From IMG/VR virus record IMGVR_UViG_3300033513_000009, positions 1 to 53,865 of that record: a stretch of DNA of 53,865 bases; one strand, written 5' to 3'. The notes beneath the pieces are model-generated. The model made no database searches and had not been told where the DNA came from. It saw only the letters and a program-made list of their open reading frames with translations. Made by a program: the position numbers and the translations under genes. How positions within the stretch are numbered: the first letter of the stretch is position 1; each line of letters begins with the position of its first letter. Shown here one piece after another: positions 27,632-51,338 of this stretch. The stretch is from a virus (lineage: Duplodnaviria > Caudoviricetes).

Positions 27632-28092
27632 TTTCTCACACCTCGTTTGGAAGCTTCTCCCATAAATTCCTTCTCGTGTCCGGTCTTTCCACCTTGATGA
27701 ACATGTGCCATACGAGCCCAGAATTGTCGTGACTTAGGTTTTTCCTTAGCCCACTTTCCAGTAGGATGTTTTTCCCTATGTAGAGCAGTAAGAGCAGCGA
27801 CAGTAGCTCCTATTTGTTTTTGAGCCTCCTTGTGTGCTGTTCCCTTTTCTTCTCTTGACAATCTATCTAGGTTGATTAATCGCTTAAGATGCTCCCTAAG
27901 AGCTCTTTCACCCCTGCGCTTTAATGCCTCATGAACCTGTTGGCGTTTCATACCAGTCATCTTAGTATGACCACCACCCGGCGCACTTCCACCCCAATGT
28001 CCCGGAACTCCAGCATGACCGTAATTTCCAGAAGAAGCCGTCCCTATTTTGAAAAGATTTTTCACCTCGTTCTCCATATGACTTCGTATCAT
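27628..28092 (-). CDS. Leader-bearing basic protein (putative capsid cargo)
   Basis: EVKNLFK-IGTASSGNYGHAGVPGHWGGSAPGG; between portal and protease. Confidence 0.7.
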   Translation of the reverse strand: MIRSHMENEVKNLFKIGTASSGNYGHAGVPGHWGGSAPGGGHTKMTGMKRQQVHEALKRRGERALREHLKRLINLDRLSREEKGTAHKEAQKQIGATVAALTALHREKHPTGKWAKEKPKSRQFWARMAHVHQGGKTGHEKEFMGEASKRGVRK

Positions 28093-28502: not shown

Positions 28503-29231
28503 TTACCCCACGTAAAACTTTTTCTCTCTTAGATAATTCTTCAAAACTTGAAGTGATTTTGAACCCTCATTCAAATCAAACTTCCCCTCAAAATCGGAGC
28601 CGTTTTTCTTCCACCAGTCACGCCCTTCTTTTGATGACATGATTTCATGAATATCATTCTTTCCTTCAAAACCCTTGGCACCTTCCTTATATGTAGGAAG
28701 TTTTTCAACATTATTATAACCAAGCCTAGCCCACGTATAATAACCATTGGCATCAGCACCCCTTCCTGCCATTGTGACTATCCTATCTACACCCATTTTC
28801 TTAGCATTAAGTACCTGATTAGCAAATACCCTTGTTCCGAATCCTTCTGGAGCACTATTATCTTTATAGAAAGATTTATTCTCAAGAACAATTTTTCCAT
28901 CTATCTTATACAATAACCTCTGTTGCACACCATCAAAATAAGGATGAGTAGCAACAAAACCTATTACCCCGCGAGAGCCCTCTAGTTTAATGGTAGTTCC
29001 TGAAGGAGCACCAATAAGACCAGCTATTTCCTCTTTATTTGGTTTCCTGCCAAATATCTCGTTCATAGCGTCTTCAACACCCTTCGCTTCTTCACTTGGT
29101 ATTTGTAGCTTTATGTTGCGATTATCAAAGAGCTCATGACCTGCATTATCGGTGTACTGATTACCATGAAAAGGATGACCTTCGAAGTCACCCTTTGCTA
29201 GTTCCAAGTTAAGTATTATTCTATCTATCAA
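28503..29231 (-). CDS. Leader-bearing GNAT-like protein
   Basis: MIDRIILNLELAK-GDFEGHPFHGNQY; GFGTRVF and NGYYTWARLGY GNAT-like motifs. Confidence 0.7.
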   Translation of the reverse strand: MIDRIILNLELAKGDFEGHPFHGNQYTDNAGHELFDNRNIKLQIPSEEAKGVEDAMNEIFGRKPNKEEIAGLIGAPSGTTIKLEGSRGVIGFVATHPYFDGVQQRLLYKIDGKIVLENKSFYKDNSAPEGFGTRVFANQVLNAKKMGVDRIVTMAGRGADANGYYTWARLGYNNVEKLPTYKEGAKGFEGKNDIHEIMSSKEGRDWWKKNGSDFEGKFDLNEGSKSLQVLKNYLREKKFYVG

Positions 29232-30663
29232 GACTAGCTATCACTCCATCTAAAACTTCCCACATTTCTTTTGATTTCCAAACTTTTTCAACCTGACCCT
29301 GTACTTCATCGGAAGGACTCTCTACCGTCTGTGGATTGGTTTTCTTTTTAGGACGAGGAGGATTACTCTTATCTGTCTCAGAACTACTTGAAGGAACCCC
29401 ACCAGCTTCCTCAGTAGGAGGAGTTGCGGTTTCTGGAAGTGGGTCTAAACCCTCTTCTGCCCTGATTTCATCAATGGTGAATACACCTGCCTGTAGATAC
29501 TGCATATTTTTTGAAACATAATTAGGGTCTTGAAGGTCTTTGCTAATCACCCAATCAAATTCAATATCATCATAACCAAAATCTTCCAGCACGATACCAT
29601 CAATTAAATCCTTTATTAGTTGTTTGTCTGTTTCCAGCCCTGCACCCGTAGCCTCTAAGTGTATCTGTTCAGCTACTGCCCTATTTGTATTAACAAGCGC
29701 CGTAGGAGAAACATAGAAAACAGCACATAATTGTTTAATCAATGTCTCCATCTGATTTAGGTCAAAAGTAGCGGGAGAAATCTGCTGAAAGCTCTTAAAG
29801 AAGTCTGGTAGGGGGATGAGTTGTCCAATTCTCTGGAAATCACCTTTATTCGTCTTATTATAGGCTTCAAGGAATCTAGCTAACTGGACAGGGTTGGTTC
29901 CCTGATTGGTGAACAAGAATCCACCCGGTATATTACCGTTGGTATAAATATTTATAGCGTGCATTTCCTGACGAATAAGCAGGTTTATATTAAAGGAAGC
30001 AATCTCGACAGGTGATTTGCCATACATGGAATCGGGTTGCGGATTCGAAACTATGTAAATCATCTCATCTCTTGTATACTGAGACTGAACTTGCCCCTGT
30101 ATTACTTGCTGGTAGGCTGGGTCTGGAGCTTCAGGAATGGTGAATAAGTCTGTTCCCAATATTTTAATAGTGGAGCCACTTACTACCCTTAGTCTATTCA
30201 GTTTATTTGCTATTGTTTTTTCTTTATAAAGATAGCTCGCATCATAGACCAGAATATCTTCCATAATACGAGATAACCAGTTATCCCATCTTGTATCTTT
30301 ATCGGGTCTTTTGAAAAATGCCGTCAATTCCTCGATTCGTTTTTCATCATTTGAATTGGGATTTTTTTTGTCTTTAGTTCTGAATTGCCATTGAAGAGCC
30401 TTTATATTATATTTACGATTAGAAATAAGAAGAGAGGTGATTGGCTCGGTTGACAGAAACTTTAATTGCTGGAAACTTGAGAGGACTTCCTTGCCCGATT
30501 TTCTCTGAGTAATATTGAAGTTATACCCAGTTGTAAAATCAGCACCACGAGGCTGTATATTATCATAAGTAGGCTTGAGTGGAAGACCAACACGGGGTAT
30601 CCCTCGTTGCTCAAACGCACTCATTTCCTCCAGTGATAATGGAACTATTCTTTCGTTAGACAA
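29221..30663 (-). CDS. Portal protein
   Basis: YGKSPVE, NGNIPGG, VFTIDEIRAEEGLDPL (HK97-type portal). Confidence 0.92.
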   Translation of the reverse strand: MSNERIVPLSLEEMSAFEQRGIPRVGLPLKPTYDNIQPRGADFTTGYNFNITQRKSGKEVLSSFQQLKFLSTEPITSLLISNRKYNIKALQWQFRTKDKKNPNSNDEKRIEELTAFFKRPDKDTRWDNWLSRIMEDILVYDASYLYKEKTIANKLNRLRVVSGSTIKILGTDLFTIPEAPDPAYQQVIQGQVQSQYTRDEMIYIVSNPQPDSMYGKSPVEIASFNINLLIRQEMHAINIYTNGNIPGGFLFTNQGTNPVQLARFLEAYNKTNKGDFQRIGQLIPLPDFFKSFQQISPATFDLNQMETLIKQLCAVFYVSPTALVNTNRAVAEQIHLEATGAGLETDKQLIKDLIDGIVLEDFGYDDIEFDWVISKDLQDPNYVSKNMQYLQAGVFTIDEIRAEEGLDPLPETATPPTEEAGGVPSSSSETDKSNPPRPKKKTNPQTVESPSDEVQGQVEKVWKSKEMWEVLDGVIASLDR

Positions 30664-30940: not shown

Positions 30941-33900
30941 TTAAATCTTAGCCTCTTCATTATTTTCCCTTTCTGCCTCTTTTTGGGTATTATAGAAGGT
31001 TGACCACATGCGAACACTGCCTAGATTAAAGAAATTTAAGGCTTGTGATAGGGAATCACAGTTGGAAACTAGTATATTATTGGCGAAATACACATGCTCT
31101 TTATCTACTGTTAGATTGTACACGTTTTCTCCAGTTTGCCCAATTGAACTTAGCGGTACAAGATTTGCTACAGGTTCGTTTTGTTTGCTTGGGATTTTCC
31201 TTCCGTATGGTTTTGAAGGTTGTCCCGCAATATTCACATTGTAATTCGATGTCATACATTCCCGTAGATTCCCTGTGCTTTCTCCCACATTGTGGTCGGC
31301 AATATTTGGGATTGTAATAGGAAGCCAAGAATTCTTTTTTACACCACAGGCATTCATGTTTCGATTGTTCTCGTTTTCCAAAGGAATGATTTTTGGCATG
31401 TTGGCGATGCCATTCCTTTCCTGCTTCTGATTTATGCCATTCCTTTGCGTCTTCCCTAATTTTTGCCAAATGCTCAATTTGTTTTTCTTTATCCTTAACA
31501 GGATGTTGCCTACGGTGTTCCCTAACTGATATACATTCCAGATTAGAGAAGTCGTTATTAAACCAATCCCCATCCTTATGGTGAATGTGATAGCCTTTTG
31601 GAACTGCTTGCCCTGCATAAAATTCCCAAATTGCAACATGAAGTCCTTTAGCACATCTTCTTCCTGCATTGGTTTTTGACTGGCTAAGATAATATCTTCC
31701 CGCCCCCATGAGGGTATATTTTGTTCCATTGAATATAATATTTTTCTGTATTTCCATCTCAAAAGCTCTCCCCAATTTAATTGTTTTGTTTCTTCAATTG
31801 TTACCTTTCCTAAATCCCTAAAACCATCCTTCGTGAAAACTGGATGATTTGGGGTTCCTGTTAATCCAATATTCGAAACTACATTATGTTTTCCCGTATA
31901 ACCACAAGTTAATACTCTACAAATTCCCGAAGGAGTGATAACCCAATCGTTTTTTGTGATTTCCTCGATAGGTTTGTTTCCGAACAATGTAGCTATTTGG
32001 GTTCCAGCCACGAAACAAATATCATCATTCTTATGTGTTCCCGCTGGCGAAAAGGCTAAGTGTTCCTCAATAATATCCACTGTCCACGCCTTGTCAGAAG
32101 GTACGTAGACCTGAGAGCCCCTGTAATAGCCGATTACTGTACTCACCCTATAGAGTTTATCAGGAGCTCCCTTAAATCCCCCTCCCTCTGCCTGAATATT
32201 GGTTGCCATTGGAATAGAAAGACCCGATTCTCGTAATTCCTGAATAAGCTGATGTCCACTTGACCTATCCTCTATAATAATATTAGTAGGCTGGTATTTA
32301 GCATTAAGGAGCAAGAGATTTTGTTTTAATTCATGGTATTGAACCTTCTCTCTGAACATATCCACGACATAATAATGACCCTTTGCTGTTAATCCCATTA
32401 CGAGGAGCACGCTATAATCATTATGCTGACCCGTTTTTACCGCCGTGTCGCATGAGATTATCAAGTCATCAAAGGCAGGGGTCTCGGAACTATCATAAAA
32501 CTGAAAATCATCCCTGTTAAATACCGCTCCATCAAGAGGGTTGGGAACCTGCATATACTGAGCGGCAAATCCAAAAGCCATATTTCTTTTAATGCGTTCA
32601 ACCTCTTCGGCAGGAAACCTTTCACCCCAGAATAAATCACCATCTTTTGCATATCCCTCAATCACTACCCCTTCTGGTAATTTGACTATACGTTCATCGT
32701 AAGTTATAGGAAGGACAATACCGTCATATTGGTCTTTTATTTGAGCTATGATGTCATCTTCATGGAGCCTCTGCATTATCAACCAACGACTTCCAATAGT
32801 TTGCGAGTTAAGACGAGAATAAAGAGTTACATTAAACCATTCATTAGCTGAATTTAGTTTCGTTATACTACTAGCATCTTGAGGTTTGAGGTAGTCGTCG
32901 ATTATTATGCAATTGTGGACGAGTATTTCATTTGCAAAGAAGTTGTGATTTCCTTCCACTTGGATGTCATAGACCCTGACCCCTCTATCGCGTATTGGGA
33001 CAACCATTTGTACGGTGTCTCCATCGAATGATGATGAATTGTATGACATATTAAGCAAATTGCCACCAAGTTCTCCGCCACATTGTTCTTCGGATTTTCG
33101 TCTATATGGTGAATTATCATATTGGAATGTCTCATCTTTCCATACCTGTTCCTTTTTATCGAAAAGGTTTGAGGTTTGTGACAAACTACACAGGCTTCCT
33201 TCTCCCTTTCCAATATCAAGGGGCGCATCTCGTAAAACCATTTGGAGTAACTTCTTCCCTCCTTGTAATGAGAATTCCCAGTTCCAATCATTCTCTTTGA
33301 ATGAGCCTTGTTTTTGCATATCATCGAGCAATACATACTTCTTGTACTCTTCCCCATAAATTCTTTTTGACAAAAGTGACAATTGATTTGCTTCAATTTT
33401 TTCCTGCTCTTGGGCGATTTCAGACGACATTCTATCGAACAAAATCTCATCGTCTTTTTGGGTACCATACTCGAACATATCTCGCATTTTCGACGATTTT
33501 TGAAAGAATGATGTTTTTCCGAGCATGTTGCGGAGCAATAAAAATCCTTTCGTCCCTTCTTTATTGATTTTTCCACATTGAACTTGCTTCTCCTGAATTC
33601 CTTGTGACACAGGGAGCATTCCAGTACGAATACAATCTTCCTCGCTTTTTGATAACATGTCCAACATATTGTTCTGCCTTCCGATTTTTTCCCCTGACAT
33701 ATTGGGCACCCCTCCGTTGCTGATAATAAGCTTATCTCCGTTCCCAAGAAGTTGTGCTTGTGTATATCCAAATCCTGTTGTGTATATACGATGTTTTCCC
33801 GTAGCCCTGATATAACGCCCTTTATTTGTGGTGATTTCATGAATATCATTGCTAACTGAAACCTTCGTTGCAACAATATTTCTCCATTCTGTTTGTTCTG

Positions 33901-34501
33901 TCTCATGATTATATGATAATACTCTTGGCATTTCCTTTAAATTTACTATCTCCTCAATAGTCATATTTCCCCATTCAGTAGCAATCATTGTCTCCCCCAC
34001 CAGACAATCAGCACCTGAGCCGGTTATTGCCGCAGCAGTCGAGGTAGCGATACGTTCTCCACCCTGATTGTTGAAGAACTTAACCTTTTCGTTCTGAGCG
34101 CCGTGTAGTTGGTAAATCTCCCCAAACCATCTCTGGTATTTCTCACTCTGGATAATAACCCTAGATTTGACCGAAAGCTCGTTTGCTAGTGTATCGGTGT
34201 GAGAGGCTACAATGAATTTCAAATATGGATAATGTACCCACGCCCATCCAACCGACATGATTGAAAATATATAAGATTTCATACAACGGGGAGGGATATT
34301 CACATAATGGTCGCGGGTTTTTGGTAGTCTCTGCCCAACCCTGAGAATATCTTTTTGAAATTCATCGCATAGGACTTTGATATGCCAGTTATCCGAAAGA
34401 GGTGTACCCGGTTCCAGTACTTCCCAAAATTCCTTTATAAAATGATAATAACTGCGACGAGCTCTTTCACGTCGTACCAACTCATTAGGCGGTATAAACA
34501 T
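30941..34501 (-). CDS. terL: Terminase large subunit with two inteins (about 502 aa after splicing)
   Basis: NIPPRCMKS Walker A; spliced GAD-CIIIDD Walker B; MQRLHEDD; SCDTA, IEDRSSG and DDI-CDS nuclease motifs. Confidence 0.95.
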   Translation of the reverse strand: MFIPPNELVRRERARRSYYHFIKEFWEVLEPGTPLSDNWHIKVLCDEFQKDILRVGQRLPKTRDHYVNIPPRCMKSYIFSIMSVGWAWVHYPYLKFIVASHTDTLANELSVKSRVIIQSEKYQRWFGEIYQLHGAQNEKVKFFNNQGGERIATSTAAAITGSGADCLVGETMIATEWGNMTIEEIVNLKEMPRVLSYNHETEQTEWRNIVATKVSVSNDIHEITTNKGRYIRATGKHRIYTTGFGYTQAQLLGNGDKLIISNGGVPNMSGEKIGRQNNMLDMLSKSEEDCIRTGMLPVSQGIQEKQVQCGKINKEGTKGFLLLRNMLGKTSFFQKSSKMRDMFEYGTQKDDEILFDRMSSEIAQEQEKIEANQLSLLSKRIYGEEYKKYVLLDDMQKQGSFKENDWNWEFSLQGGKKLLQMVLRDAPLDIGKGEGSLCSLSQTSNLFDKKEQVWKDETFQYDNSPYRRKSEEQCGGELGGNLLNMSYNSSSFDGDTVQMVVPIRDRGVRVYDIQVEGNHNFFANEILVHNCIIIDDYLKPQDASSITKLNSANEWFNVTLYSRLNSQTIGSRWLIMQRLHEDDIIAQIKDQYDGIVLPITYDERIVKLPEGVVIEGYAKDGDLFWGERFPAEEVERIKRNMAFGFAAQYMQVPNPLDGAVFNRDDFQFYDSSETPAFDDLIISCDTAVKTGQHNDYSVLLVMGLTAKGHYYVVDMFREKVQYHELKQNLLLLNAKYQPTNIIIEDRSSGHQLIQELRESGLSIPMATNIQAEGGGFKGAPDKLYRVSTVIGYYRGSQVYVPSDKAWTVDIIEEHLAFSPAGTHKNDDICFVAGTQIATLFGNKPIEEITKNDWVITPSGICRVLTCGYTGKHNVVSNIGLTGTPNHPVFTKDGFRDLGKVTIEETKQLNWGELLRWKYRKILYSMEQNIPSWGREDIILASQKPMQEEDVLKDFMLQFGNFMQGKQFQKAITFTIRMGIGLITTSLIWNVYQLGNTVGNILLRIKKNKLSIWQKLGKTQRNGINQKQERNGIANMPKIIPLENENNRNMNACGVKKNSWLPITIPNIADHNVGESTGNLRECMTSNYNVNIAGQPSKPYGRKIPSKQNEPVANLVPLSSIGQTGENVYNLTVDKEHVYFANNILVSNCDSLSQALNFFNLGSVRMWSTFYNTQKEAERENNEEAKI
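31061..32017 (-). mobile_element. Intein 2 in the TerL nuclease domain (319 aa)
   Basis: Starts CFVAGTQIAT, block B TPNHPVF, ends YNLTV..HVYFANNILVSN|C. Confidence 0.9.
31101..31757 (-). CDS. HNH homing endonuclease in an alternate frame inside intein 2
   Basis: LHVAIWE..HIHHKDGDWFNNDFSNLECI..H plus CxxC fingers; GGGGAGAG RBS 8 nt before ATG 31757. Confidence 0.85.
   Translation of the reverse strand: MEIQKNIIFNGTKYTLMGAGRYYLSQSKTNAGRRCAKGLHVAIWEFYAGQAVPKGYHIHHKDGDWFNNDFSNLECISVREHRRQHPVKDKEKQIEHLAKIREDAKEWHKSEAGKEWHRQHAKNHSFGKREQSKHECLWCKKEFLASYYNPKYCRPQCGRKHRESTGMYDIELQCEYCGTTFKTIRKENPKQTKRTCSKSCTAKFNWANWRKRVQSNSR
32905..33906 (-). CDS. Zinc-finger HNH homing endonuclease in an alternate frame inside intein 1 (start uncertain)
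   Basis: Multiple CxxC/YCSxxC repeats then CVVC..IHHIDENPKNNVAENLVAICLICH. Confidence 0.85.
   Translation of the reverse strand: MRQNKQNGEILLQRRFQLAMIFMKSPQIKGVISGLRENIVYTQQDLDIHKHNFLGTEISLLSATEGCPICQGKKSEGRTICWTCYQKARKIVFVLECSLCHKEFRRSKFNVEKSIKKGRKDFYCSATCSEKHHSFKNRRKCEICSSMVPKKTMRFCSIECRLKSPKSRKKLKQINCHFCQKEFMGKSTRSMYCSMICKNKAHSKRMIGTGNSHYKEGRSYSKWFYEMRPLILEREKEACVVCHKPQTFSIKRNRYGKMRHSNMIIHHIDENPKNNVAENLVAICLICHTIHHHSMETPYKWLSQYAIEGSGSMTSKWKEITTSLQMKYSSTIA
32912..34006 (-). mobile_element. Intein 1 at the TerL Walker B (365 aa)
   Basis: Starts CLVGETMIAT, block B ATGKHRIYT, ends VYDIQVEGNHNFFANEILVHN|C. Confidence 0.93.
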
Positions 34502-36335: not shown

Positions 36336-37288
36336 ATGAAAATCACAGCATTGGGTGTCAACTCAGCTTTCGCCATTGGTAGTTCCAAAAATGGTCTTTA
36401 CGACCCTAAATTCCAGAGTAATTTCCTAATTGAATTCCCTCAAGAAAATGGGGATACCTATAAATTCGTACTAGATTTTGGAGGAGATATTCGTCATTCA
36501 TTGGCAATGGCGGGGCTTAAGGTGGGTGATATTGATGGCTGGTACTCCTCACACCCACATGCTGACCATATAGGGGGCGTGGAGGCAATAGCACTATCAA
36601 CTATCTTTAATCCATATTATCATAAGGTTACAACAGAAATCAGCTTAAATAAATCCCTTAACGGAATCAATAATACAACAAGCCCTGATAAAAAACTTTA
36701 TTGGGCGAGAAGTCTATTGTTGAATTCCTGAATGAGGGGAATGATTTTGAGCCTTCAATGAAGCCCGACCTTTTTGGGCATCCCGAAGTTCTAAAGAAGT
36801 TATGGAAATCAGCGGAAGCAGGGCTAGATACGATTCAGGGTGTCCACAAGCCGACATTATCAACATTCTTTCACGTAATAAGAATGGAGGCTGGAGCAAA
36901 AAAGATATTCATGGAAATTAAAGATAGGAAGAGAAGAGTGTGGGCTTTCCATACGATTGAGAGCGTACATGTTATTGCTGGTTATCGCCACATGCCTTCT
37001 TATGGCTTATTTTTCGAAGCAGATGATGGAACTAAGATTTATTTTCCAACAGATACTCTTTATATGTCTCCTCCTACCATGGAAACTTTTTACAGGAAGG
37101 CTAATGTAATCTATCAGGACTGCGAAACAGGCATTAAGTCGGGCGTCCATAGTCACATAGATGATATAAAGAAAAGCGACCCCTCAATTAAGCGTAAATG
37201 TTATCTTTATCACTATAATGAGGAGCCGATTGTTGAGGAAGGTGAATTCGCAGGAATTCTAAGAAGGGGTGATGTGCATGAGTGGTAA
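36336..37288 (+). CDS. MBL-fold hydrolase (Apyc1/RNase Z-like), split by a 1-nt frameshift
   Basis: LGVNSAF, DFGGD, SHPHADHIGG, HV, TD, DC..SGVH, YHY; one extra A in the A6 run at 36690-36695 joins the two ORFs. Confidence 0.8.
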
Positions 37289-37844: not shown

Positions 37845-37888
37845 AAGCCTCCTATGAATATTATATCATAAGAGGCTTAATTTGTCAA
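37845..37888 (-). promoter_or_regulatory. Consensus promoter with inverted repeat
   Basis: TTGACA(37888-37883)-17-TATAAT(37865-37860); AAGCCTC/GAGGCTT arms. Confidence 0.8.
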
Positions 37889-38571
37889 ATCCCACCAAGT
37901 AGTTTTTCCAGTGTTCTTGAGTTTTCTATTTCGTCACCTATTAGCTGTCCTTTATCAATTAGACGTGCCAAAACTTGCGCCAAACTATCGAGAGGTATAC
38001 TATAACCCTTCTTTAGGTATTTCCCTACCCTTATAAGCGACCCAGCGGGTTCTTCCTCCCTGATTGGTCTAGTATAAATCAATCTTTTCGCAGAAAGGTC
38101 TATATAGAATCTTTCAGAACAAAGAGATTGCCAATGATTGTCCTGATAATAGATAACTGCTTGGCAGAGAGAAAAATCAAAATCATTGATGACCTTTTCG
38201 GCAGTATCATACTTCCATCTTTTGACAATCTGTATTGGATAACGAAGGGTTCTAATGGTATAGGCATTTATAGTTTCATATGCTTCGGTTGCAAGAAATT
38301 CGGATACTAATAAATTAGCATCTTGTGTGAATAGGTCTATATCATTAATTTTTTCATTTGCAATAACAGCCCGAATAAATCCACCAGCAAGGAAGATTTT
38401 CCCCTGCCATTCATCTTTTTGCATTACCTTAATAAGGTCGTAAGGTATTCTCTTTACGACCTTATTAACATCGTAATTATCCAACGACCTCATCGGTATC
38501 CTTTTTAATATCAGTTTCTTTTTTAATATCGGTTTCTTTAATACTGAAAACACTACCATCATCAGCTTCAA
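37885..38571 (-). CDS. Nucleotidyltransferase (Pol-beta/CCA head-like, short)
   Basis: LAGGFIR..NDIDLF, FDFSLCQA, R..KY..KGY. Confidence 0.75.
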   Translation of the reverse strand: MKLMMVVFSVLKKPILKKKLILKRIPMRSLDNYDVNKVVKRIPYDLIKVMQKDEWQGKIFLAGGFIRAVIANEKINDIDLFTQDANLLVSEFLATEAYETINAYTIRTLRYPIQIVKRWKYDTAEKVINDFDFSLCQAVIYYQDNHWQSLCSERFYIDLSAKRLIYTRPIREEEPAGSLIRVGKYLKKGYSIPLDSLAQVLARLIDKGQLIGDEIENSRTLEKLLGGI

Positions 38572-38630
38572 TCAGGAGGGGAAAGTTCTTACTGAATTTA
38601 TCGTTAATCACCTTTCCTTCCCTGCCGTCA

Positions 38631-38918
38631 TTAGTTTTTATTGTTTTTCCTATCATTATTTTTTCTCCAAAGTTTAGCGACCAACTTCCCTAATTCCATT
38701 TTCCAGTACTTAACGGAGCCTTTTGGGGTAGGAATATTCCCATCCTTTACTTCTCTGGTGTTTTTGCTTTCCATTGCGTCAATGGTATCAATAGCATCTG
38801 TTCCTTCTATTCTAGGTAGGTCTGGTGTCGGAACTACAACCTTCACCTTGCTTTGAATATCTACCCCTGACAGCCCTGCACTAGTTCCGACTTCTTTTTT
38901 GATTTCTTTTTTATTCAT
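38631..38918 (-). CDS. Small protein with a copy of the MCP N-terminal arm
   Basis: VGTSAGLSGVDIQSKVKVVVP vs MCP VGTSAGLYGVDIQEGAKLVVP. Confidence 0.7.
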   Translation of the reverse strand: MNKKEIKKEVGTSAGLSGVDIQSKVKVVVPTPDLPRIEGTDAIDTIDAMESKNTREVKDGNIPTPKGSVKYWKMELGKLVAKLWRKNNDRKNNKN

Positions 38919-39102
38919 GGTCGCATTGTCCGCAACATTCTGATTTTGCAAAATGCAAAACATGTTTATCTGCTTCCGCATAAATAGAGACTAACTCATA
39001 ACCCTCATCTTCTAATTCCTTGATAGCACTATTGAGGACTAACTCAGTACTAGTGCTCCCTTCATAACCGCCCACTACCTTGATTTTTGATTTTATTTTC
39101 AT
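38911..39102 (-). CDS. Hypothetical protein
   Basis: Coupled small ORF. Confidence 0.5.
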   Translation of the reverse strand: MKIKSKIKVVGGYEGSTSTELVLNSAIKELEDEGYELVSIYAEADKHVLHFAKSECCGQCDHE

Positions 39103-39350: not shown

Positions 39351-39362
39351 ATTTTATCAATA

Positions 39363-40454
39363 TTACTCCATAATGTCAAGAGCTATTTTCAGACCCTGTT
39401 CCTTGGTGGAAAACTCTTCATCAAACTGCCTGTTCAGCAATTCTTTCAAGAGTCTACCCATGTGTGGAGAAGGTGTTACTCCTATCGAAATAAGGTCATC
39501 ACCATTAACTACAGGTGCAAGACTATTTTTTACTTCCTCGTATATTGAGCGGAGCCCTTCAGTCTCATAACCTTTCGCTTTATAGAACTTGATAAGCTTC
39601 GGTACGTCCACCTTATTTGCAAGTTGTCTTACAGAAGGTCTGGTAAGGTTGAACTCATACGGAATAAGCAAGCTTTTAACGCTCTCCAGCAATTTTGTTT
39701 CATTCGAAAGCCCATTAGTTCCTCCAAGAAGAGCGAACATTACATCAAGCTCTCGACTCTCTACATTGTCGATGAATCTGTAGTCATATGAAGGAAAAAT
39801 CACCTCAAGGATTCCGTTTTCCTCCATCCATTCAAATGCTATTGATGGTTTTTTACCCTTCAATAGTATTTTTTCAAATTCACCCAATATTCTCTCCCTT
39901 GAAAGAGATGGGAGTTCTGGTATGAGTTCCCTGCAAAGCTTTGTAGTTTCGGGGTCGATACCGAATTCAAAACGGGAAGCGAATTGAGCCACCCTAAGTA
40001 CCCTCAGTGGGTCTTCAGCAAAAGTATCTCTGTTGACATACCTGATAAGTTTTTTCTGAATATCTTTCACACCATTAAATGGGTCGATTATCTCTCCGCT
40101 TAGTGGGCACATCAATATAGCATTAATAGTTAAATCCCTGCGTGAGCAAGCTTCCTCAAATGACATGAAGGGGTCAGCGCTAATAGCAAATTGCGTATGT
40201 CCTACCCCTATTTTGCGTTCCCTGCGGGGGATTGAAATATCCATATCCCCCAATTTATAAATGCCGAAGGACTGACCTACCAAATTAGGTTCACCAAATT
40301 CTCGCAAAACCTCCAATAGCTGTGGTTCCGTCAAGCCATAGACCTCTATGTCTATATCCTTGTTTGGGAGACCCATTAGGGTATCACGCACGATTCCCCC
40401 AACGAGGAATGCCCTTCCTCCTTTCTCCCTAATTTGTTGCGCTATTTGTTTCAT
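39363..40454 (-). CDS. cca: CCA tRNA nucleotidyltransferase (class II)
   Basis: VGGIVRD, DIDIE, RRDLTINA, EDPLRVLR, SRERI..E, VNGDDL. Confidence 0.88.
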   Translation of the reverse strand: MKQIAQQIREKGGRAFLVGGIVRDTLMGLPNKDIDIEVYGLTEPQLLEVLREFGEPNLVGQSFGIYKLGDMDISIPRRERKIGVGHTQFAISADPFMSFEEACSRRDLTINAILMCPLSGEIIDPFNGVKDIQKKLIRYVNRDTFAEDPLRVLRVAQFASRFEFGIDPETTKLCRELIPELPSLSRERILGEFEKILLKGKKPSIAFEWMEENGILEVIFPSYDYRFIDNVESRELDVMFALLGGTNGLSNETKLLESVKSLLIPYEFNLTRPSVRQLANKVDVPKLIKFYKAKGYETEGLRSIYEEVKNSLAPVVNGDDLISIGVTPSPHMGRLLKELLNRQFDEEFSTKEQGLKIALDIME

Positions 40455-40524
40455 AACTTTATTATATCATAATACATTTAATTTGTCAATTATTCAGTGT
40501 CACAACATATGCTATAATTTTCAA
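40455..40524. promoter_or_regulatory. Divergent leaderless promoters for cca and acb1
   Basis: Minus TTGACA(40489-84)-17-TATAAT(40466-61), 6 nt to ATG; plus TGCTATAAT(40510-18), 6 nt to ATG 40525. Confidence 0.75.
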
Positions 40525-41025
40525 ATGAAGAAAATAGAAGAACTCGTAAATTTCATTAAATCGTTCACAAAGGGCACTTATGCTGGAGTGAGATTTGATG
40601 AGCAAACTCAAAATATATTGTTTCAATATGCAATAGATAATAAAATCCCTAATCCTGTTAGCAAGGAGGATTACCATACAACGCTTTTGTATAGTCGCAA
40701 ATACCTTCCTAATTATAAGGGGGCAGGAAAAATAGATATGTATGGAACTCCAGCGAAATTAGAGATTTGGAAAAACAGCAATGCCTTGATTAAAACTTCT
40801 GTTTTGGTACTTCGCTTTGAAAGTTCCGAACTTTCCAAGAGGCATAATTTTTTGATGGGGGAACATCATGCTACCTATGATTTCCCAACCTATATTCCTC
40901 ACATCACATTAAGTTATAATGTTGGTGATTTAGATATTTCGACATTACCAAAAGTTCCCTTAACAGAAATACATATGGTTGAAGAGTATAGCTCCGATTT
41001 AAATGAGGAAAAAATTAAAAAATAA
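40525..41025 (+). CDS. acb1: Anti-CBASS 2H phosphodiesterase, Acb1 (T4 57B-like)
   Basis: Two HxT motifs YHTTLLYSR and YIPHITLSYNVG; PNPV, LEIWK, LVL..S..L..RH, ATYDF match T4 57B as recalled. Confidence 0.85.
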   Translation: MKKIEELVNFIKSFTKGTYAGVRFDEQTQNILFQYAIDNKIPNPVSKEDYHTTLLYSRKYLPNYKGAGKIDMYGTPAKLEIWKNSNALIKTSVLVLRFESSELSKRHNFLMGEHHATYDFPTYIPHITLSYNVGDLDISTLPKVPLTEIHMVEEYSSDLNEEKIKK

Positions 41026-41186
41026 TGGAAGAGAAAGCAGTGGCACAAATTCAAAAAGAACTAGACAAATTGGGGCTCAGATATGAAGATAAAGATAAGC
41101 CAGACTTCCCTATCGGAAAGGTGTGGGAGGCTGGAATAGACCTTTCTAGCGCTCAGGTTGAAGGACAAACCGTCTTTTTGGACTAA
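41025..41186 (+). CDS. 53-aa hypothetical (not in ORF track)
   Basis: MEEKAVAQIQKELDKLG...; TAATG coupling at both ends. Confidence 0.6.
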   Translation: MEEKAVAQIQKELDKLGLRYEDKDKPDFPIGKVWEAGIDLSSAQVEGQTVFLD

Positions 41187-42019
41187 TGGATAGGGTTAAA
41201 GAATTACAATCAATTGTAAAATCGTTTTTCGGACATGAGGGACGGGAGGGATTAGTAGGTGGAAGCTCTCCTCGAAACTTATTCAAAAATGAAGAAGAAG
41301 CGATTACGCATTTCAAAAATATGGGTATTGGTCTCGAATTTAAGTATGGCGACCGTCAGACTAAACTAAATAGAATTGAAATAGAGCAATTGAATGATGT
41401 TGCAAAAAGTGTCGCGCATATTACTTCAAAATATCCCCTAAAAAACAAGCATATGTTCGAGAATATAGTAATTGATAACACAATGCAGGAGAATCATAGG
41501 GGAATGTGGTCTGGTTCCTTCTATCCAAGTAGTCCCATGGATTCACATGGAAATATTCTTTTGAATATGAAAGCATTAATGGATTATAAGACAGGGGCTA
41601 ATATCGCAACCTCCCTCAAGGAAACCCTTATCCATGAATATGGTCATGCCCTACATCACGAATATGAGGCATTTAATTGGGATAATTTTGCTAATCGCCT
41701 ACCACTAGAGGGGCTCAAACCAGTATCATCTAAAACAGGAGCATTAATGTCGGATTTATATGATTTAAGGGAGACTATTAGTAAGGGAATACGGGGTGAT
41801 GATGAGTTTCAAAATCTTACTTCTGCCGACCTTCATTATTTCAAAGACCTGAAGCAATATGCACCTTCGGTTTATGCGCTAAATAATATCCATGAATACG
41901 TTGCAGAAAGCTTTTTGGCTAGGGAGAAAGGGCAGGAACTATCACCATTTAGTCAGAAAGTCCTAAAGGAAATTATAGACAGTAAACCTGATTGGAAAAT
42001 AAAGAGAGCGCTTTTTTAG
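41186..42019 (+). CDS. Leader-bearing zincin metallopeptidase
   Basis: VKELQSIVK-SFFGHEGREGLVGGSSPR; HEYGH; PSVYA..EYVAESF. Confidence 0.8.
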   Translation: MDRVKELQSIVKSFFGHEGREGLVGGSSPRNLFKNEEEAITHFKNMGIGLEFKYGDRQTKLNRIEIEQLNDVAKSVAHITSKYPLKNKHMFENIVIDNTMQENHRGMWSGSFYPSSPMDSHGNILLNMKALMDYKTGANIATSLKETLIHEYGHALHHEYEAFNWDNFANRLPLEGLKPVSSKTGALMSDLYDLRETISKGIRGDDEFQNLTSADLHYFKDLKQYAPSVYALNNIHEYVAESFLAREKGQELSPFSQKVLKEIIDSKPDWKIKRALF

Positions 42020-43581: not shown

Positions 43582-43864
43582 TGATTTTTTGTAACTTTTC
43601 TATTTTGGTACTATTAATATCATAATATGCAAGAGTTTGTCTTGCCCATGCCCATTGACCGCGTAAAAGTGAGCGCAATGCAGGTGATACCGTTGCATAT
43701 AGTATAAGGTTATCTATAGGAACTTCGTTACCCCCAATAAGCATGGGAAATGTTTCCACTATTCTATCTAAATATGCTCTTAGTTTTGATTCATCTATAG
43801 GCTCATTTTTCCTATTGAAATAGAGTATTCCTAATTCTCGTCCGATTTTATTACTATAGTCCAC
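43568..43864 (-). CDS. Small protein coupled downstream of a zincin gene
   Basis: Overlaps the stop of 43854-45377. Confidence 0.55.
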   Translation of the reverse strand: MDYSNKIGRELGILYFNRKNEPIDESKLRAYLDRIVETFPMLIGGNEVPIDNLILYATVSPALRSLLRGQWAWARQTLAYYDINSTKIEKLQKIINNP

Positions 43865-45377
43865 TGTATTCTCCTAGAAATTCTTTTTGATAGTCTGTTA
43901 ATTTTTTATTAGTAAGGTGTGCCTGAACAAAACTTTCAGCAAAAAATTCATACTTATTAGTCATTCCGAACTTGCTTGGAATATCGTTCTGAACTTTTTC
44001 GTAACCAAAACCAAGCAAGGAGCCACCCGCCTTATTACTAATGGATTGCGCAAAGGCATCAAATCCCCTGTCATCTTTTCTCAAGTCCCTATAACTATAA
44101 GCATGACCCATTTCATGAGCGATAACATGTTGCATTGGTGCTGAATCTGTTTTTATCAAGTCAGACATTCCTAATCCACCCATCTGGTCATAAACAAAAG
44201 CTCTTTTATTAAAGATAATCTTTGCTGTCCCATCGGCATAGGGTTGGTAAATTGCCCCCGCATCACTTTTACCACCCAAGTCCTTTGTTGTAATATGAGT
44301 TAGTCCTTTTGGCATTCCGAATTTATCATGGAGGGCAAACAATGTTTCATTTATTTGATGTACCTGCTCCAATGTGGGAATATCCCCATAGTTCACCTTT
44401 ATGCCTAGCTTTTTTGTCGCCATCTTGCTTGCTTCGGCAACAGTAGTAGCTTCCCTTGGTAAACTCCCACCTCTTTCCCCCTGACGTCCCTTATGACCCT
44501 TGAAGGATTTTGCTAGTTCCAAATCAGATATTATTTTGTTTATTCCATAATCATGGTGGTCTAAATGATATTTGGTTTTATCAACAACAGGAATGCCCTT
44601 CTTATCGGCTTCAGCTTTTAGCTCTTTATAGGTCTCGTCATCAACTATTTTTCGGTCAACTTGAATATTCTTGATGTACTTATCGGCATTTTCCAGACCA
44701 TTATTGCCACCAATTTTAAGCTCCTCTTCGCCAGCAAATGTTCCAAGAAATTTATCTCCCACCTTGACTTTATGACCGTCTTCTTTTATTTTGCCCAAAT
44801 CTAAGTCAATACGCACACCTTTATCAGCGAAGGTATAAGGCTTGTTGCCCTCTCCGTACCACTGAACAGTTGCTATATCTGGGTGGTCAAAATCGGGATT
44901 AGTTGTTGTCGATAATCCAGATACCTCACCCTCCCCATAAAGTTGATTTTCCTGTAAAATATTAATTGCAGAAGAAGGGTCAGTAAAGTGATATGTTTTG
45001 GGGGCATTTTCGTCACCTCCCATAGCAAAGGGGTTGGGTTGTTTATTAAGAATCTCTAAATTACGGGATAATTCTTTAAATGATTTATCATCCCTAGCGT
45101 GAAGTTCGTTAAATCTGGTTGTCAGTTCTTCTTCAGAGATTTTGTCTCGTTCCGCTTTTAATTTATCCCAACCTTCCGATGATTTGATGTCATGGGCTTG
45201 TTTTAAAGCGCCCCTAAGTCGAAGAATATCTTGTGGTTTTAGGGTGCCACCATCTTTAACATAATCCATGTATTTTTGATGATTTTCCATGGTGATTCCT
45301 TTTGTCCACTGGTTTCCGTGAAATTCGTGACCTTCCTTGTCACCCTTCCTTAAGTTGTAAATTATTTTATCGAGCAT
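43854..45377 (-). CDS. Two-module leader polyprotein: ART-like domain plus zincin
   Basis: LDKIIYNLRK-GDKEGHEFHGNQW; YHFT/LSTT/GEEE; internal INKIISDLELAK-SFKGHKGR; HEMGH, EFFAESF. Confidence 0.75.
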   Translation of the reverse strand: MLDKIIYNLRKGDKEGHEFHGNQWTKGITMENHQKYMDYVKDGGTLKPQDILRLRGALKQAHDIKSSEGWDKLKAERDKISEEELTTRFNELHARDDKSFKELSRNLEILNKQPNPFAMGGDENAPKTYHFTDPSSAINILQENQLYGEGEVSGLSTTTNPDFDHPDIATVQWYGEGNKPYTFADKGVRIDLDLGKIKEDGHKVKVGDKFLGTFAGEEELKIGGNNGLENADKYIKNIQVDRKIVDDETYKELKAEADKKGIPVVDKTKYHLDHHDYGINKIISDLELAKSFKGHKGRQGERGGSLPREATTVAEASKMATKKLGIKVNYGDIPTLEQVHQINETLFALHDKFGMPKGLTHITTKDLGGKSDAGAIYQPYADGTAKIIFNKRAFVYDQMGGLGMSDLIKTDSAPMQHVIAHEMGHAYSYRDLRKDDRGFDAFAQSISNKAGGSLLGFGYEKVQNDIPSKFGMTNKYEFFAESFVQAHLTNKKLTDYQKEFLGEYSGL

Positions 45378-45579
45378 ATTCTTGTAGATACGAGGAAAAT
45401 TTAACACCCTTTCTTATGAGGTTTTTGATTATACGCCCATATTTAACTGGGTCAATAGATACTCGAATAGTCAGCAACTCTTCTATGCCATAACCATTTC
45501 TATAGTTCTGATAAAGACCCTCAATCATATCTTGTTCCGACATTTCATCATCTATTAATATGTATTCCATTATTTCCAT
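45367..45579 (-). CDS. Small protein coupled downstream of a zincin gene
   Basis: 70 aa with acidic N-terminus; overlaps both neighbours. Confidence 0.55.
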   Translation of the reverse strand: MEIMEYILIDDEMSEQDMIEGLYQNYRNGYGIEELLTIRVSIDPVKYGRIIKNLIRKGVKFSSYLQEYAR

Positions 45580-46349
45580 TTGGTTATCCTTTCCAACATT
45601 GTTTTTTGAAGTTCGCTGATTTTCATTCCGGTATGAGCTTGCACAAATGATTCAGCGACAAATTCATCGGAATCTTGCATTGCATATATGCTTGGAACAT
45701 CTGCTCTTTTTTTATATACTTGTGGTGTGAGTTCACCCTCTTCATTTTCAAGCCTATCCCTAAAAGCCCAAAAGTCATGATGATTAGGGTCATTATAATA
45801 GATACGTGTATTCCCTTCTTTATCCTTCCTCTGCCCAAAATGCTCTAGTCGATAATTGAAATCATAAGCATGTCCCAATTCATGAAGTGTAGAGACCTTG
45901 ACTTGACTAGCCCCAAGGGGCATTACCGTCATGTCCCCGAATATTTTATCCATTTGCTCAAAGGTTGAATTTCTTTCTATGCACTTTGAATTAATGACCA
46001 CTTTCCCCAAAAATGGAACACCTTTTGTTACTGCCTCAAGGGGATTACTCCTAAAAGCTCCTTGTACCCCAAAATCCATTTCCTCTACAACAAATTCTTT
46101 CAGACCATCAGGCTTCCCATATTTTGAAAAAATGTCTGACATAGTTCCTATTGCATGATTCAATCCTTCTATATTTGTTTTATTAGGGATGGTTGCTTTC
46201 ATCCCTAATTTCTTTTCAATAAATACGCGGGCTTCCTTTACATTTTTGGCTCCAGTAAAACCACTGATGTATTGATTGCCATGGAATGGATGACCCTTGA
46301 AATCACCCTTCCTTAAGTTGTAAATTATTTTATCTAGTTTTATTAGCAT
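45570..46349 (-). CDS. Leader-bearing zincin metallopeptidase
   Basis: KLDKIIYNLRK-GDFKGHPFHGNQY; HELGH; PSIYA..EFVAESF. Confidence 0.8.
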   Translation of the reverse strand: MLIKLDKIIYNLRKGDFKGHPFHGNQYISGFTGAKNVKEARVFIEKKLGMKATIPNKTNIEGLNHAIGTMSDIFSKYGKPDGLKEFVVEEMDFGVQGAFRSNPLEAVTKGVPFLGKVVINSKCIERNSTFEQMDKIFGDMTVMPLGASQVKVSTLHELGHAYDFNYRLEHFGQRKDKEGNTRIYYNDPNHHDFWAFRDRLENEEGELTPQVYKKRADVPSIYAMQDSDEFVAESFVQAHTGMKISELQKTMLERITKWK

Positions 46350-47480: not shown

Positions 47481-47921
47481 TTATGCCTCATAATCACCAT
47501 CATATCTATGACCTTGTTGATTAGCAGTATCCTTTAATTGACTATGGAGAGGAGTACCGTGATAAGCATCAATAAATTTATCAACATTCCTGCTTAATGT
47601 ATGCTTGAATTGATTTCCATCCCTACCTTCCTTGTATTTAATAACCATATCCTTAATAGCCTCATGTGGAGTCGCGTCCCCCATTTTAACTTCATTAGCT
47701 GTTTTTTCGGCATAGGTATGACCAGCCTCCGTTTCCAATGAAGCATTGTATGTAGTTGGTCTTAGGTCTTCATTCTTAAGTCTATTAGATACCGTTGCTC
47801 TCTTCTCCCCAAAATGCGCACTAAGTGAATGAGCTATTTGCCTATATTGATTCCCGTGAAACTCATGACCTTCTTTGTCACCTTTTGCTAGTTCTAATTT
47901 ATCTATTATTTTATTTATCAT
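47481..47921 (-). CDS. Leader-bearing hypothetical (putative capsid cargo)
   Basis: MINKIIDKLELAK-GDKEGHEFHGNQY; own TTGACA(47963-58)-17-TATAAT(47940-35). Confidence 0.75.
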   Translation of the reverse strand: MINKIIDKLELAKGDKEGHEFHGNQYRQIAHSLSAHFGEKRATVSNRLKNEDLRPTTYNASLETEAGHTYAEKTANEVKMGDATPHEAIKDMVIKYKEGRDGNQFKHTLSRNVDKFIDAYHGTPLHSQLKDTANQQGHRYDGDYEA

Positions 47922-47966
47922 TTTACTATCCTTTATTATACCATATTTATCTTGATTTGTCAAAAA

Positions 47967-48440
47967 CTATTTGCCCTGTTCGATTTGTTCTGTTACCCTT
48001 TCTAACACTTCTAATTCGGCATCACTCAAATTAGCAAGTATTTCCTGAGCTTCTTCCTTACTAACACCTATATGGAGATTAACACCTCTTTGCTCGACTT
48101 CAATCTTCTCCGCATATCCACGTTTTTTACCTAGTGTTTTTGCCGCGAATATGATGGCAGTTGTATCCCCTGCTTGTATTTTTTTGAATAAGGCGCTCTC
48201 TACGAAGTCTAGTTTAATTTCAGATATATTCTCGACAGCCTCTCTATAGCTCTCATCTTCTTTGAGCCAGTTATAGTGTGTTTGACGAGTAATCCCGACT
48301 TTTTCTGTAGCTGTTTGAACTATCCCCAACGTACTTTTAAGTGCGGCTACCATAGCCTTCTTCTGCGGGTGTTTAGTATATAGAGCTACAGGATGTCGCC
48401 CTATTTTTGAAAGATTTTTTCCCATATTCTCACCAACCAA
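47967..48440 (-). CDS. terS: Probable terminase small subunit (HTH)
   Basis: VGITRQTHYNWLKED HTH; ESALFKKI..GDTTAIIF..KT.GKKRGY typical of phage TerS-like proteins. Confidence 0.7.
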   Translation of the reverse strand: MVGENMGKNLSKIGRHPVALYTKHPQKKAMVAALKSTLGIVQTATEKVGITRQTHYNWLKEDESYREAVENISEIKLDFVESALFKKIQAGDTTAIIFAAKTLGKKRGYAEKIEVEQRGVNLHIGVSKEEAQEILANLSDAELEVLERVTEQIEQGK

Positions 48441-49627: not shown

Positions 49628-50200
49628 TTACTGTATCTCTGAAAGCCTATCCAATCCTTCTTGGTCAAATAGTCTAGTTATACCTTTGTGCTCTTTTAGA
49701 ACGGCTTTATATTCCCTCATGGCTTCTTTGTTGGGACGACCATAATCATCATATTTGTCGTGGTTATAGTTCTCGGCATAATCCTCGAAAGAACCGGGGT
49801 CAGAAACAGACATAGATATTGAGCTCAAAATGTCATAAGTCGAAGGTTTCTCTCCCTTATTGGTAGCATTTATACTATTTCCCCAGTTAAAAGAATAGGA
49901 ATCTCCATCTTTGTTTTTTAGGGTAACTTTATACACATCTCTAGTGACACCCTTCTTCTTATCACTCGGAAAGTGTGACTTATTGCCCATGTGCAAGACA
50001 TGGAGAGAAGCTCCTGTATCATTCAGGAATCGTTGTGCATGTGTGTGATATTCATTTGAAGGGTCATGTTTTAATTCAACTTTTCCTCCACCATTTCCAG
50101 TGTATTGATTGCCCCTGAATGGATGTCCCTTTCTCTCACCGGAGCCAGCTCCGCCTTTTAGTATTTCGATAACTCTATTTAGTTTTTGTAATTTGTTCAT
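49628..50200 (-). CDS. Leader-bearing hypothetical (putative capsid cargo)
   Basis: KLNRVIEILK-GGAGSGERKGHPFRGNQY; GAGG RBS before ATG 50200. Confidence 0.75.
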   Translation of the reverse strand: MNKLQKLNRVIEILKGGAGSGERKGHPFRGNQYTGNGGGKVELKHDPSNEYHTHAQRFLNDTGASLHVLHMGNKSHFPSDKKKGVTRDVYKVTLKNKDGDSYSFNWGNSINATNKGEKPSTYDILSSISMSVSDPGSFEDYAENYNHDKYDDYGRPNKEAMREYKAVLKEHKGITRLFDQEGLDRLSEIQ

Positions 50201-50298
50201 ATTTTCCTCGTTTTTTATATTATACAATAAAAACTAGACTTGAAAATTTGACAGGCAAAATAAAAAATGTTAAAATGGTTCAAATTCAGAGAAAAAAA

Positions 50299-51338
50299 AT
50301 GTATATCAGCTCAAATAACTGCTTCTTTCATAGTGCGGGGGTAATGCAAACAATTGATACCCTCCCACCCAAAACTTTTGTCGTACAGTTTGACGGGATG
50401 AAAAATGAATATTACCCAGAAGTGGTTGAGAGTTCTTCCTTTTCAACCAAAATCTATGGGGATACTACCAAGATAGCTGAACGTATCCTCAATACTTTCA
50501 GGGGTCGTCCCGCAACAACTGGGGTACTACTCGCTGGAGAAAAAGATACTGGTAAAACAATGCTTGCTAAACTCCTGTCAGTAACAGGCGGAAAGGAGGG
50601 TTATCCAACCATCCTAATTAATGCCCCTCATCAGGGAGACGTTTTTAATAAATTCATTCAAAAAATAACACAACCCGCAATTATTATTTTGATGAATTCG
50701 AAAAGGTGTACGACAAGGAAGGTCAGGAGAGTATACTTACACTACTTGATGGCGTATTCCCTAGCAAGAAGCTAGTTATACTAACTTGTAACAACATTTA
50801 TAGGATAGATAGTCACCTCAAGAACAGACCGGGTCGTATTTATTACATGCTGGAATACAAGGGTCGGGAAGAGGATTTTATCAGGGATTATTGCGAGGAT
50901 AACCTAAAAGCGAAGAATCATATCCCCGCTGTTTGCGGTATCTCAAGGGTTTTCGAAGAATTTAACTTCGATATGTTGAGGGCATTGGTTGAAGAAATGA
51001 ATAGATACAAGGAATCTCCTGACGAAGCCCTGAAAATGCTCAATATTAAAATAGGAGACCCATATTCTGCTAATAGATATGCTACAGAGGTCTTTGTAAA
51101 TGGCAGAAAAAAGCGAGTAGACTACCCTGAGTTTGTTGAGGGCTCCCCATTGTCAATGAGGCAGATAGAGATTTGTTTTGGCAATAAAACTATCTTCCTA
51201 GCTCCAACAGACATATTACTAAAAGAATCAAACAAAGAGACTTTTGTGTATGAAAAAGATGGGACGAAAATTATCTTCAGGAAGCAGGAAAGACAAAATC
51301 TGTTGGGTGATTTTGCACAAGGGTTGTTGACAAGTTAG
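50299..51338 (+). CDS. AAA+ ATPase split by a 1-nt frameshift at Walker B
   Basis: GEKDTGKT; adding one T at 50687-50690 gives IIIFDEFEK; LLDG, TCN, RPGRI; promoter TTGACA(50248)-17-TAAAAT. Confidence 0.8.

Follow-up and report, generated by a model that had tools for sequence, protein, structure and literature searches.

Why does a tailed phage encode, 12.8 kb from its head genes and inside a tightly overlapping operon, a small protein that resembles a piece of its own major capsid protein (MCP)? The window analysed here is a whole virus record (IMGVR_UViG_3300033513_000009) of 53,865 bp, with a G+C content of 39% and an estimated completeness of 46% (CheckV). An earlier note, made without database searches, had described a small ORF of this record as carrying a copy of the capsid N-arm, and had named an assembly modulator, a packaging tag, a decoy for capsid-sensing defences or a duplication remnant as possible explanations. 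Here we examine the match, the gene, its history and its surroundings; coordinates of the features are collected in Table 1.

Table 1 Features of the window that bear on the small ORF
Feature	Position	Strand	Evidence or remark
Structural module	677-34501	-	Tail fibre genes, tape measure, head-tail adaptor, MCP, protease, portal, large terminase
MCP, HK97 fold	24611-26113	-	500 aa; phrog_13692 E 1.3e-85; AF2 + Foldseek
Source segment of the copy, MCP codons 25-61 (N-arm)	25931-26041	-	Best-conserved stretch of the MCP family
Prohead protease (Peptidase_S78) fused to long C-terminal region	26126-27631	-	PF04586 E 1.5e-5; phrog_80 head maturation protease
Portal	29221-30663	-	In structural module
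Metallo-beta-lactamase (MBL)-fold hydrolase, two overlapping ORFs	36336-37288	+	PF00753 E 5.1e-10; phrog_392
Downstream 59-aa ORF	38477-38656	-	SD (GGAG) + ATG within last 26 bases of small ORF
Small accessory ORF, 95 aa (minimal form, ATG at 38918)	38631-38918	-	Open frame
Predicted C-terminal helix of small ORF, residues 69-92, lysine-rich	38643-38714	-	AF2 single-sequence model, block pLDDT 84-88
Copy of MCP N-arm, small-ORF codons 5-36	38811-38906	-	23/32 aligned residues identical to MCP 25-61
Upstream 63-aa ORF, same operon	38911-39102	-	Stop overlaps ATG of small ORF
Possible N-terminal extension of small ORF	38919-38981	-	Starts 38963 or 38981; overlaps end of ORF 38911-39102
Sigma-70-type promoter (TTGACA-17-TAAAAT, TG)	39351-39379	-	11/12; heads operon of small ORF
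tRNA nucleotidyltransferase (CCA-adding type)	39363-40454	-	PF01743 E 3.2e-17; PF12627 E 8.9e-13; phrog_2244 E 1.2e-60
Acb1 anti-CBASS phosphodiesterase homologue	40525-41025	+	PF23474 E 6.5e-33, 113.9 bits vs cut-off 27
Peptide-bearing ORFs	1093-1578, 3774-4247, 47481-47963, 28503-29231	-	Shared N-terminal peptide
Peptide-bearing ORFs	43854-45407, 45570-46349, 1575-2318, 49628-50227	-	Shared N-terminal peptide

The small ORF matches the N-arm of the capsid protein

The 95-aa protein begins MNKKEIKKEVGTSAGL. BLASTP aligned its residues 5–36 with MCP residues 25–61 (23 identities over 37 columns, 5 gaps, 40.4 bits, E 1e-9), and none of 2000 shuffles reached the local score of 94 (shuffles 30.3 ± 4.7, maximum 59). 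Consistently, an all-against-all BLASTP of the 507 stop-to-stop ORFs of the window recovered the small ORF/MCP pair at E 9.4e-9. Profile searches gave the same picture: an HMM of the MCP N-arm detected the small ORF at E 9.6e-4 among 22,789 ORFs, the N-arm alignment profile at E 7.9e-6 within its own record, and an HMM of the whole MCP at E 4e-4, with the match limited to profile positions 13–68. The family N-arm motif (G-L..D.Q..K...P..TP....PR) was present, 13 of the 14 columns conserved at ≥90% being kept. That a small protein carries a copy of the MCP N-arm, the core of the earlier note, is thus borne out.

The copy starts 4 residues before a conserved MCP lysine, and its Ile6 and Lys8 match a conserved Ile-x-Lys. 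It lacks 5 residues between MCP Pro50 and Arg61, including most of a short predicted helix. Beyond the copied segment the likeness ends, in agreement with the note's description of the remainder as unrelated: hhalign against a 45-sequence MCP alignment aligned only ORF residues 4–41 and nothing after residue 41, and the C-terminal part gave no match above shuffles against all window ORFs, the protease-scaffold included, nor any C-terminal tag shared with other proteins. An 'ELGK' likeness of this part to the scaffold end was rejected as chance, with 753 of 2000 shuffles reaching the scaffold score. No further MCP pieces were found in the record and window. With 95 residues and the N-arm only, the small ORF is without complete P- and A-domains of the HK97 fold. 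Complex prediction for the MCP and the 95-aa protein returned a score of 0.00 in two runs made without controls, and carries no weight either way.

The small ORF has the properties of a gene

Under a codon model trained on 40 genes of the window, the small ORF scored +28.5 in its own frame, and the five other frames contained 1–11 stops each. Its unrelated part (codons 37–87) scored +16.5 in frame, against references of 20.4 ± 8.3 for real-gene windows and −30.2 ± 14.2 for off-frame ones, 1% of which lie above 0. ATG 38918 overlaps the stop of the upstream 63-aa ORF (ATGAATAA), which had no family match in Pfam, PHROG or PADLOC, and the last 8 codons overlap the next gene. At the level of its sequence, the small ORF is shown to be a real, translated accessory gene.

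The position of the start is less clear. The gene call in the source record begins at 38963 and gives a 110-aa form, codon scores in 38919–38981 are about 0 for both overlapping frames, and no clear SD precedes any of the three candidate ATGs (38918, 38963, 38981). A word search of sequencing runs found one positive DNA run, perhaps from the source sample, and no positive RNA run; two RNA-type runs of the same study contained almost none of the words.

In the AF2 model the 95-aa protein is mostly disordered, the N-arm copy included, and the C-terminal helix is the sole confident element. Residues 73–95 have a pI of 10.7. A claim that this helix is amphipathic was dropped, as its moment of 0.48 was equalled by 34.5% of shuffles. 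The protein fell into no known anti-defence family (no match in Pfam or PADLOC, no usable match in the Atlas) and into no known internal-protein family (no Pfam or PHROG match at the thresholds used). Its distance of 12.8 kb from the MCP gene, its separate operon and its mostly disordered model are not features of decoration or cement proteins.

The source segment is the best-conserved stretch of the capsid protein

The MCP had no Pfam family, its PHROG match (phrog_13692) is annotated 'unknown function', and its profile gave 0 hits against the sequences of solved structures. Its AF2 monomer model (mean pLDDT 77) matched the SU10 capsid best in Foldseek (E 3.9e-12), followed by Pa223, SPO1 and HK97. 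By this model, the MCP is an HK97-fold protein, SU10-like by fold. A tblastn search for MCP relatives in phage records gave seven hit rows, three of them annotated as major head or capsid protein (Alicyclobacillus phage MMB025, plus Arthrobacter phage Sonali in two records). The family is large: 293 proteins were found at E ≤1e-5, and 567 of 587 candidate stretches in viral contigs encode MCP relatives, none with more than 43% identity to the MCP of the window. The family alignment used below has 45 members, 34–43% identical to that protein.

In this alignment, mean conservation was 0.39 for MCP residues 1–24 and 0.80 for residues 29–65. The best 37-residue windows were 28–64, 29–65 and 30–66 (0.80), and block 25–61 ranked first among 12 non-overlapping blocks. 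The lysine at which conservation rises is kept in 82% of 44 relatives. In HK97 the maturation cut follows a lysine, and by analogy the conserved MCP lysine could be the maturation site. The earlier note had placed the copied segment right after a predicted cleavage site; conservation does jump at the lysine, with the copy starting 4 residues before it, and the cleavage itself stays a prediction. MCP residues 23–48 have pLDDT <50 in the monomer model, as expected for an arm that becomes ordered only against a partner. Taken with the model of the small protein, this shows the N-arm copy as a predicted disordered peptide made to be bound.

The MCP gene lies directly downstream of the Peptidase_S78 protease-scaffold gene, whose long C-terminal region is presumed to be the scaffold. 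Directly after the MCP gene, 24220–24567(−) encodes a 115-aa protein with a long Glu/Ala/Pro/Val repeat tail (EAPVEV...) and a lysine end, which may be a decoration or linker protein. The large terminase, 30941–34501(−), has 1186 aa; it contains an intein within its ATPase part (PF14890 Intein_splicing, residues 179–530, E 2.2e-20) and a second Hint-like stretch at residues 828–863.

The copy is old and has been kept

The DNA of copy and source had been described in the earlier note as diverged at synonymous positions, and indeed 15 of the 23 identical residues use different codons, with a nucleotide identity of 62/96. Codon-level alignment over 32 codons gave pS 0.85 (saturated) and pN 0.19, and the differences at codon positions 1, 2 and 3 numbered 6, 5 and 23; the test rests on these 32 codons only, and the preference of the MCP for T-ending codons inflates the silent differences. 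Since silent sites are saturated and replacement sites are not about half changed, the copy has not been drifting freely. The copy agreed with its own MCP at 13 of 14 conserved columns vs 10 of 18 variable ones (Fisher p 0.044). The pattern of substitutions shows residues needed by the MCP family as kept in both copies by purifying selection.

These data bear on whether the small ORF merely survives from an incomplete duplication at the MCP 5' end, unexpressed or expressed without any use of its N-arm likeness. An orphan with no relatives in the collections searched, without a clear SD at any candidate start, with low AF2 confidence and with a decayed part upstream of residue 5 (6/22 identities to the MCP) would suit this explanation. 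It sits poorly, however, with saturated synonymous sites at a pN of 0.19, with the third-position bias of the differences, with the conserved-column pattern, with gene-like codon usage in the unrelated part and with tight operon packing, and we regard it as unlikely. For the copied part, the remnant under neutral decay that the earlier note had allowed for is accordingly disfavoured, whereas its term 'capsid mimic' holds as a description, given the selection on the copied part and the coding score of the C-terminal part. The product of the small ORF is probably a molecular mimic.

The duplication took place within this lineage

Against its own MCP the copy scored 92 with 23 identities; among 119 other family members the best score was 64 (16 identities) and the median 51. 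At the 16 positions where this MCP departs from the family consensus, the copy follows its own MCP at 10, the consensus at none and neither at 6. Being nearest to its own MCP and following MCP-specific residues, the copy points to a duplication within this lineage, long ago. In a 116-aa form, the likeness found by BLASTP reaches MCP residue 3 (29/59 identities, 43.1 bits, a gain of 2.7 bits), and the whole-MCP profile alignment begins 7 codons ahead of ATG 38918. This faint upstream likeness suggests that the segment first duplicated probably reached back to the MCP start codon.

The closeness of the copy to its own MCP in sequence also bears on a role as assembly modulator or competitor weapon, in which a free N-arm peptide would compete with real N-arms and either delay or chaperone the assembly of the phage's own capsid or poison that of related co-infecting phages. 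The mimic keeps the residues conserved by the family, as such a competitor should. Competition by partial mimicry has a precedent in SaPI1 CpmB, which reportedly mimics the C-terminus of the 80alpha scaffold: there too a small protein has one short segment in common with a protein of head assembly and competes with it for one site, but CpmB copies the scaffold instead of the capsid N-arm, and its gene belongs to a satellite and not to the phage. Interference with phage assembly is also said, in a published study (PMC11364771), to serve as a defence. However, since the copy is closest to its own MCP, the first assembly to suffer would be the phage's own; no hint of an immunity partner was seen, and the gene is not conserved in relatives. 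We therefore hold this role to be quite improbable.

No relative of the small protein was found in 50,697 phage records, in 31 candidate stretches of IMG/VR contigs or in 449 candidate stretches of JGI metagenome contigs. In a set of 5.8 billion proteins, it was the only true member among 5 candidates, and phmmer against 1.84 billion representatives returned the protein itself and one match (P0124). The latter (E 6.7e-11 over 10 stretches) is a 3796-aa eukaryote-type receptor phosphatase with fibronectin-like repeats, and we take its score to reflect repeat summation, not homology. In 80 related loci (MCP ± up to 10 kb), the MCP was found in 80/80 and a second N-arm copy in none; the N-arm HMM picked a second ORF in 9 of them, each at E ≥0.28, which is chance level. 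Because the copy lies 12.8 kb from the MCP here, whole records of relatives were searched too: the 17 longest, of which 6 are at least 90% complete, gave exactly one match each and no second copy. As a control, the same N-arm profile finds both copies in the phage's own record. In the sequences covered, the arrangement is so far unique to this lineage. The earlier note had proposed a check for conservation in relatives, and the gene was present in none of those searched; as none of them is a close relative (MCP identity 43% at most), their lack of the small gene is no measure of its conservation.

The small ORF lies among predicted counter-defence genes

The operon reads ORF83, ORF63, small ORF, ORF59 and a nucleotidyltransferase (37885–38571). 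A promoter scan (TTGACA-16/18-TATAAT at 11 or 12 of 12) found 18 near-consensus sites vs 2.6 (maximum 5) in 30 shuffles. Thirteen of the 18 fall within the non-structural 35–54 kb part; most of these have an extended −10 TG and sit immediately ahead of a gene start. The next transcription unit upstream of the operon is the gene for the CCA-adding enzyme, and the Acb1 gene, which PHROGs names 'RNA ligase', is divergent from that unit. A known anti-defence gene, Acb1, thus lies within a few kb of the small ORF, and within 2.5 kb are found Acb1, the MBL hydrolase, the CCA-adding enzyme and the second nucleotidyltransferase. A match of the MBL hydrolase to Apyc1 was below threshold (22 bits vs 50). 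Judged by its predicted genes, the neighbourhood is in its make-up that of a counter-defence cluster.

Some 13 kb away from the gene for the large subunit, the small terminase gene, 47967–48440(−), also falls in the non-structural part rich in promoters. Since this gene and several tagged proteins (see below) share that part, the promoters do not prove an 'early' timing. Three promoters of the region are perfect or near-perfect sigma-70 sites that end about 7 bases ahead of an ATG: 40461–40489(−) before ATG 40454, 39351–39379(−) before ATG 39344, and TGCTATAAT before ATG 40525(+). This spacing suggests that the mRNAs of the CCA-adding enzyme, ORF83 and Acb1 are leaderless. Two genes appear to be split into overlapping ORFs, that of the MBL hydrolase (36336–36731(+) and 36701–37288(+)) and that of an ATPase (50248–50775(+) and 50706–51338(+)), whose halves match positions 2–131 and 140–286 of phrog_2376. 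A frameshift, an assembly error or programmed slippage may be the cause.

We infer that the small protein binds whatever binds the N-arm. Our leading reading, held tentatively, is that it acts in the cytoplasm and baits a host sensor that recognizes the capsid N-arm. Expressed along with other counter-defence genes from a promoter of host type, the bait would fill the site by which a host protein, an immune sensor being the most plausible candidate, would otherwise catch the N-arm of new MCP, and the occupied sensor would be blocked or diverted. The unrelated 59-residue tail, an acidic linker and the C-terminal helix, would serve as a handle or blocker. In favour of this reading are the neighbouring genes, the type of promoter, a distribution limited to one lineage and the copying of the most conserved epitope; a lineage-specific small ORF fits a bait, since accessory genes are often lineage-specific.

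Host immunity can reportedly read even a short capsid piece, the Gol peptide of T4 gp23, a stretch of about 30 residues near the mature N-terminus that acts with Lit. A further parallel is DSAD1, which is said to inhibit DSR2 by occupying this sensor of a structural protein, and to do so without sequence likeness to the tail tube. As with DSAD1, a small phage protein would here stop a sensor from reading a virion protein; the candidate inhibitor differs in being a sequence copy of the presumed trigger. In the case of CapRel, the sensor domain is bound by newly synthesized MCP, which makes capsid proteins direct immune triggers (PMC9712102). CapRel and Gol/Lit resemble the proposed case in that capsid proteins, even short pieces, are read by host immunity, but CapRel and Lit are host sensors, not phage mimics.

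Several points weigh against a bait. The bait, as a copy of the trigger, might set off the sensor itself, and the literature searched contained no experimentally shown capsid-fragment decoy. We know of no CapRel- or Lit-like sensor for this phage or its host, and the known sensors are not, to our knowledge, known to read N-arms. Promoters of this type also stand before the small terminase gene and several tagged proteins, so that the promoter alone does not make the small ORF an early gene. The selection test, with its 32 codons and the MCP codon bias that inflates synonymous differences, and a record only 46% complete also limit the case. Moreover, an N-terminal copy with Ile-x-Lys ahead of the presumed maturation site would suit a tag for head targeting no less well.

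Tagging by N-terminal peptides may be a habit of this phage

At least eight otherwise different proteins of the window share the N-terminal peptide M-I/L-N/D-K-I-I-x-x-L-E-L-A-K-G, followed by G-H-x-F-H/R-G-N-Q-Y/W. Two of the peptide-bearing proteins continue instead with a G-S-G-R-Y-P-A-G-S-G-K stretch (86% identity over 36 aa), and one is encoded beside the portal gene. The shared peptide had no Pfam family, and a string search of the literature returned nothing relevant; it may be a virion-loading or processing tag. Glycine-rich G-H-x-G-x-x-G-x-x-G-G-S stretches near the N-terminus were seen in two more proteins, 27628–28092(−) and 41186–42019(+), the latter with an HExxH motif (HEYGH) and a weak Peptidase_M3 match (E 0.017).

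With at least eight other proteins carrying a common N-terminal peptide, tagging seems a habit of this phage, and the main rival to a bait, possible though in our judgement doubtful, is that the N-arm copy is a head-docking or packaging tag that lets the small protein enter the assembling head. It might take the N-arm site on neighbouring MCP subunits, for example at empty sites around the portal, or be handled by the protease-scaffold like the MCP N-terminus. The protein would then be trimmed after Lys8 and stay as a minor internal protein with a basic C-terminus, possibly as cargo that is injected to counter defences, as with T4 IPI or the Dar proteins of P1. Because packaged cargo can be anti-defence, the gene context fits such a tag too. 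The copy is N-terminal, Ile6 and Lys8 match the Ile-x-Lys before the MCP conservation jump, and the likeness may extend back to the MCP start.

In T4, the capsid-targeting tag is removed on cleavage, whereas the well-kept part of the copy would remain after cleavage and so would not be a removable leader; what the small ORF shares is the MCP N-terminal region including Ile-x-Lys, with cleavage of the MCP predicted only. Further, a closed lattice has its N-arm sites occupied already, the 5 residues absent from the copy include most of the short predicted helix, the gene stands outside the late head module behind a host-type promoter, and no relative carries it.

Published systems offer partial parallels. 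T4 IPIII and P1 DarB bear N-terminal capsid-targeting peptides (PMC9024508). They resemble the small ORF in having a short N-terminal peptide on a small accessory protein with a link to the prohead and its protease, in genes outside the head module and in cargo that can be anti-restriction (PMC9024508). The T4 and P1 tags are, however, not known to be copies of the MCP N-arm, whereas here 32 residues are homologous to the mature N-arm. DarA-Hdf is placed on the inner capsid wall (PMC12810830). In 80alpha, the N-arm is a lattice strap, with a strand under the E-loop of the neighbour, and CP, SP and L27 share N-terminal sequence at the site of a common protease, Prp (PMC5744158). There too, proteins otherwise unrelated have an N-terminal stretch in common with the capsid protein, because one protease handles all of them (PMC5744158); but the 80alpha motif is short, lies before the cut and is served by a host protease, while the likeness here is longer and falls mostly after the presumed cut.

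Implications

In the literature searched, no phage was described as having an accessory protein based on a copy of its own capsid N-arm. A more elaborate version of the bait would be a two-layer module, in which an N-arm copy made early blinds an abortive-infection sensor of the CapRel kind that attacks tRNA 3'-CCA ends while the CCA-adding enzyme and the nucleotidyltransferase repair such damage as still occurs, as one case of an undescribed class of 'structural-fragment baits'; we consider this a long shot.

If the small protein is a bait, as we tentatively favour, phages would turn an epitope read by immunity into an inhibitor, and such genes could lead the way to capsid sensors and to the sites that these recognize. 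If it is instead a docking tag, it would represent a new route for loading HK97-type heads, one that borrows the lattice strap and may be useful for phage-based delivery. Either way, a 32-residue peptide, predicted to be disordered and kept in two genes whose silent sites are saturated, would single out the N-arm as an element that binds a partner which can be defined.
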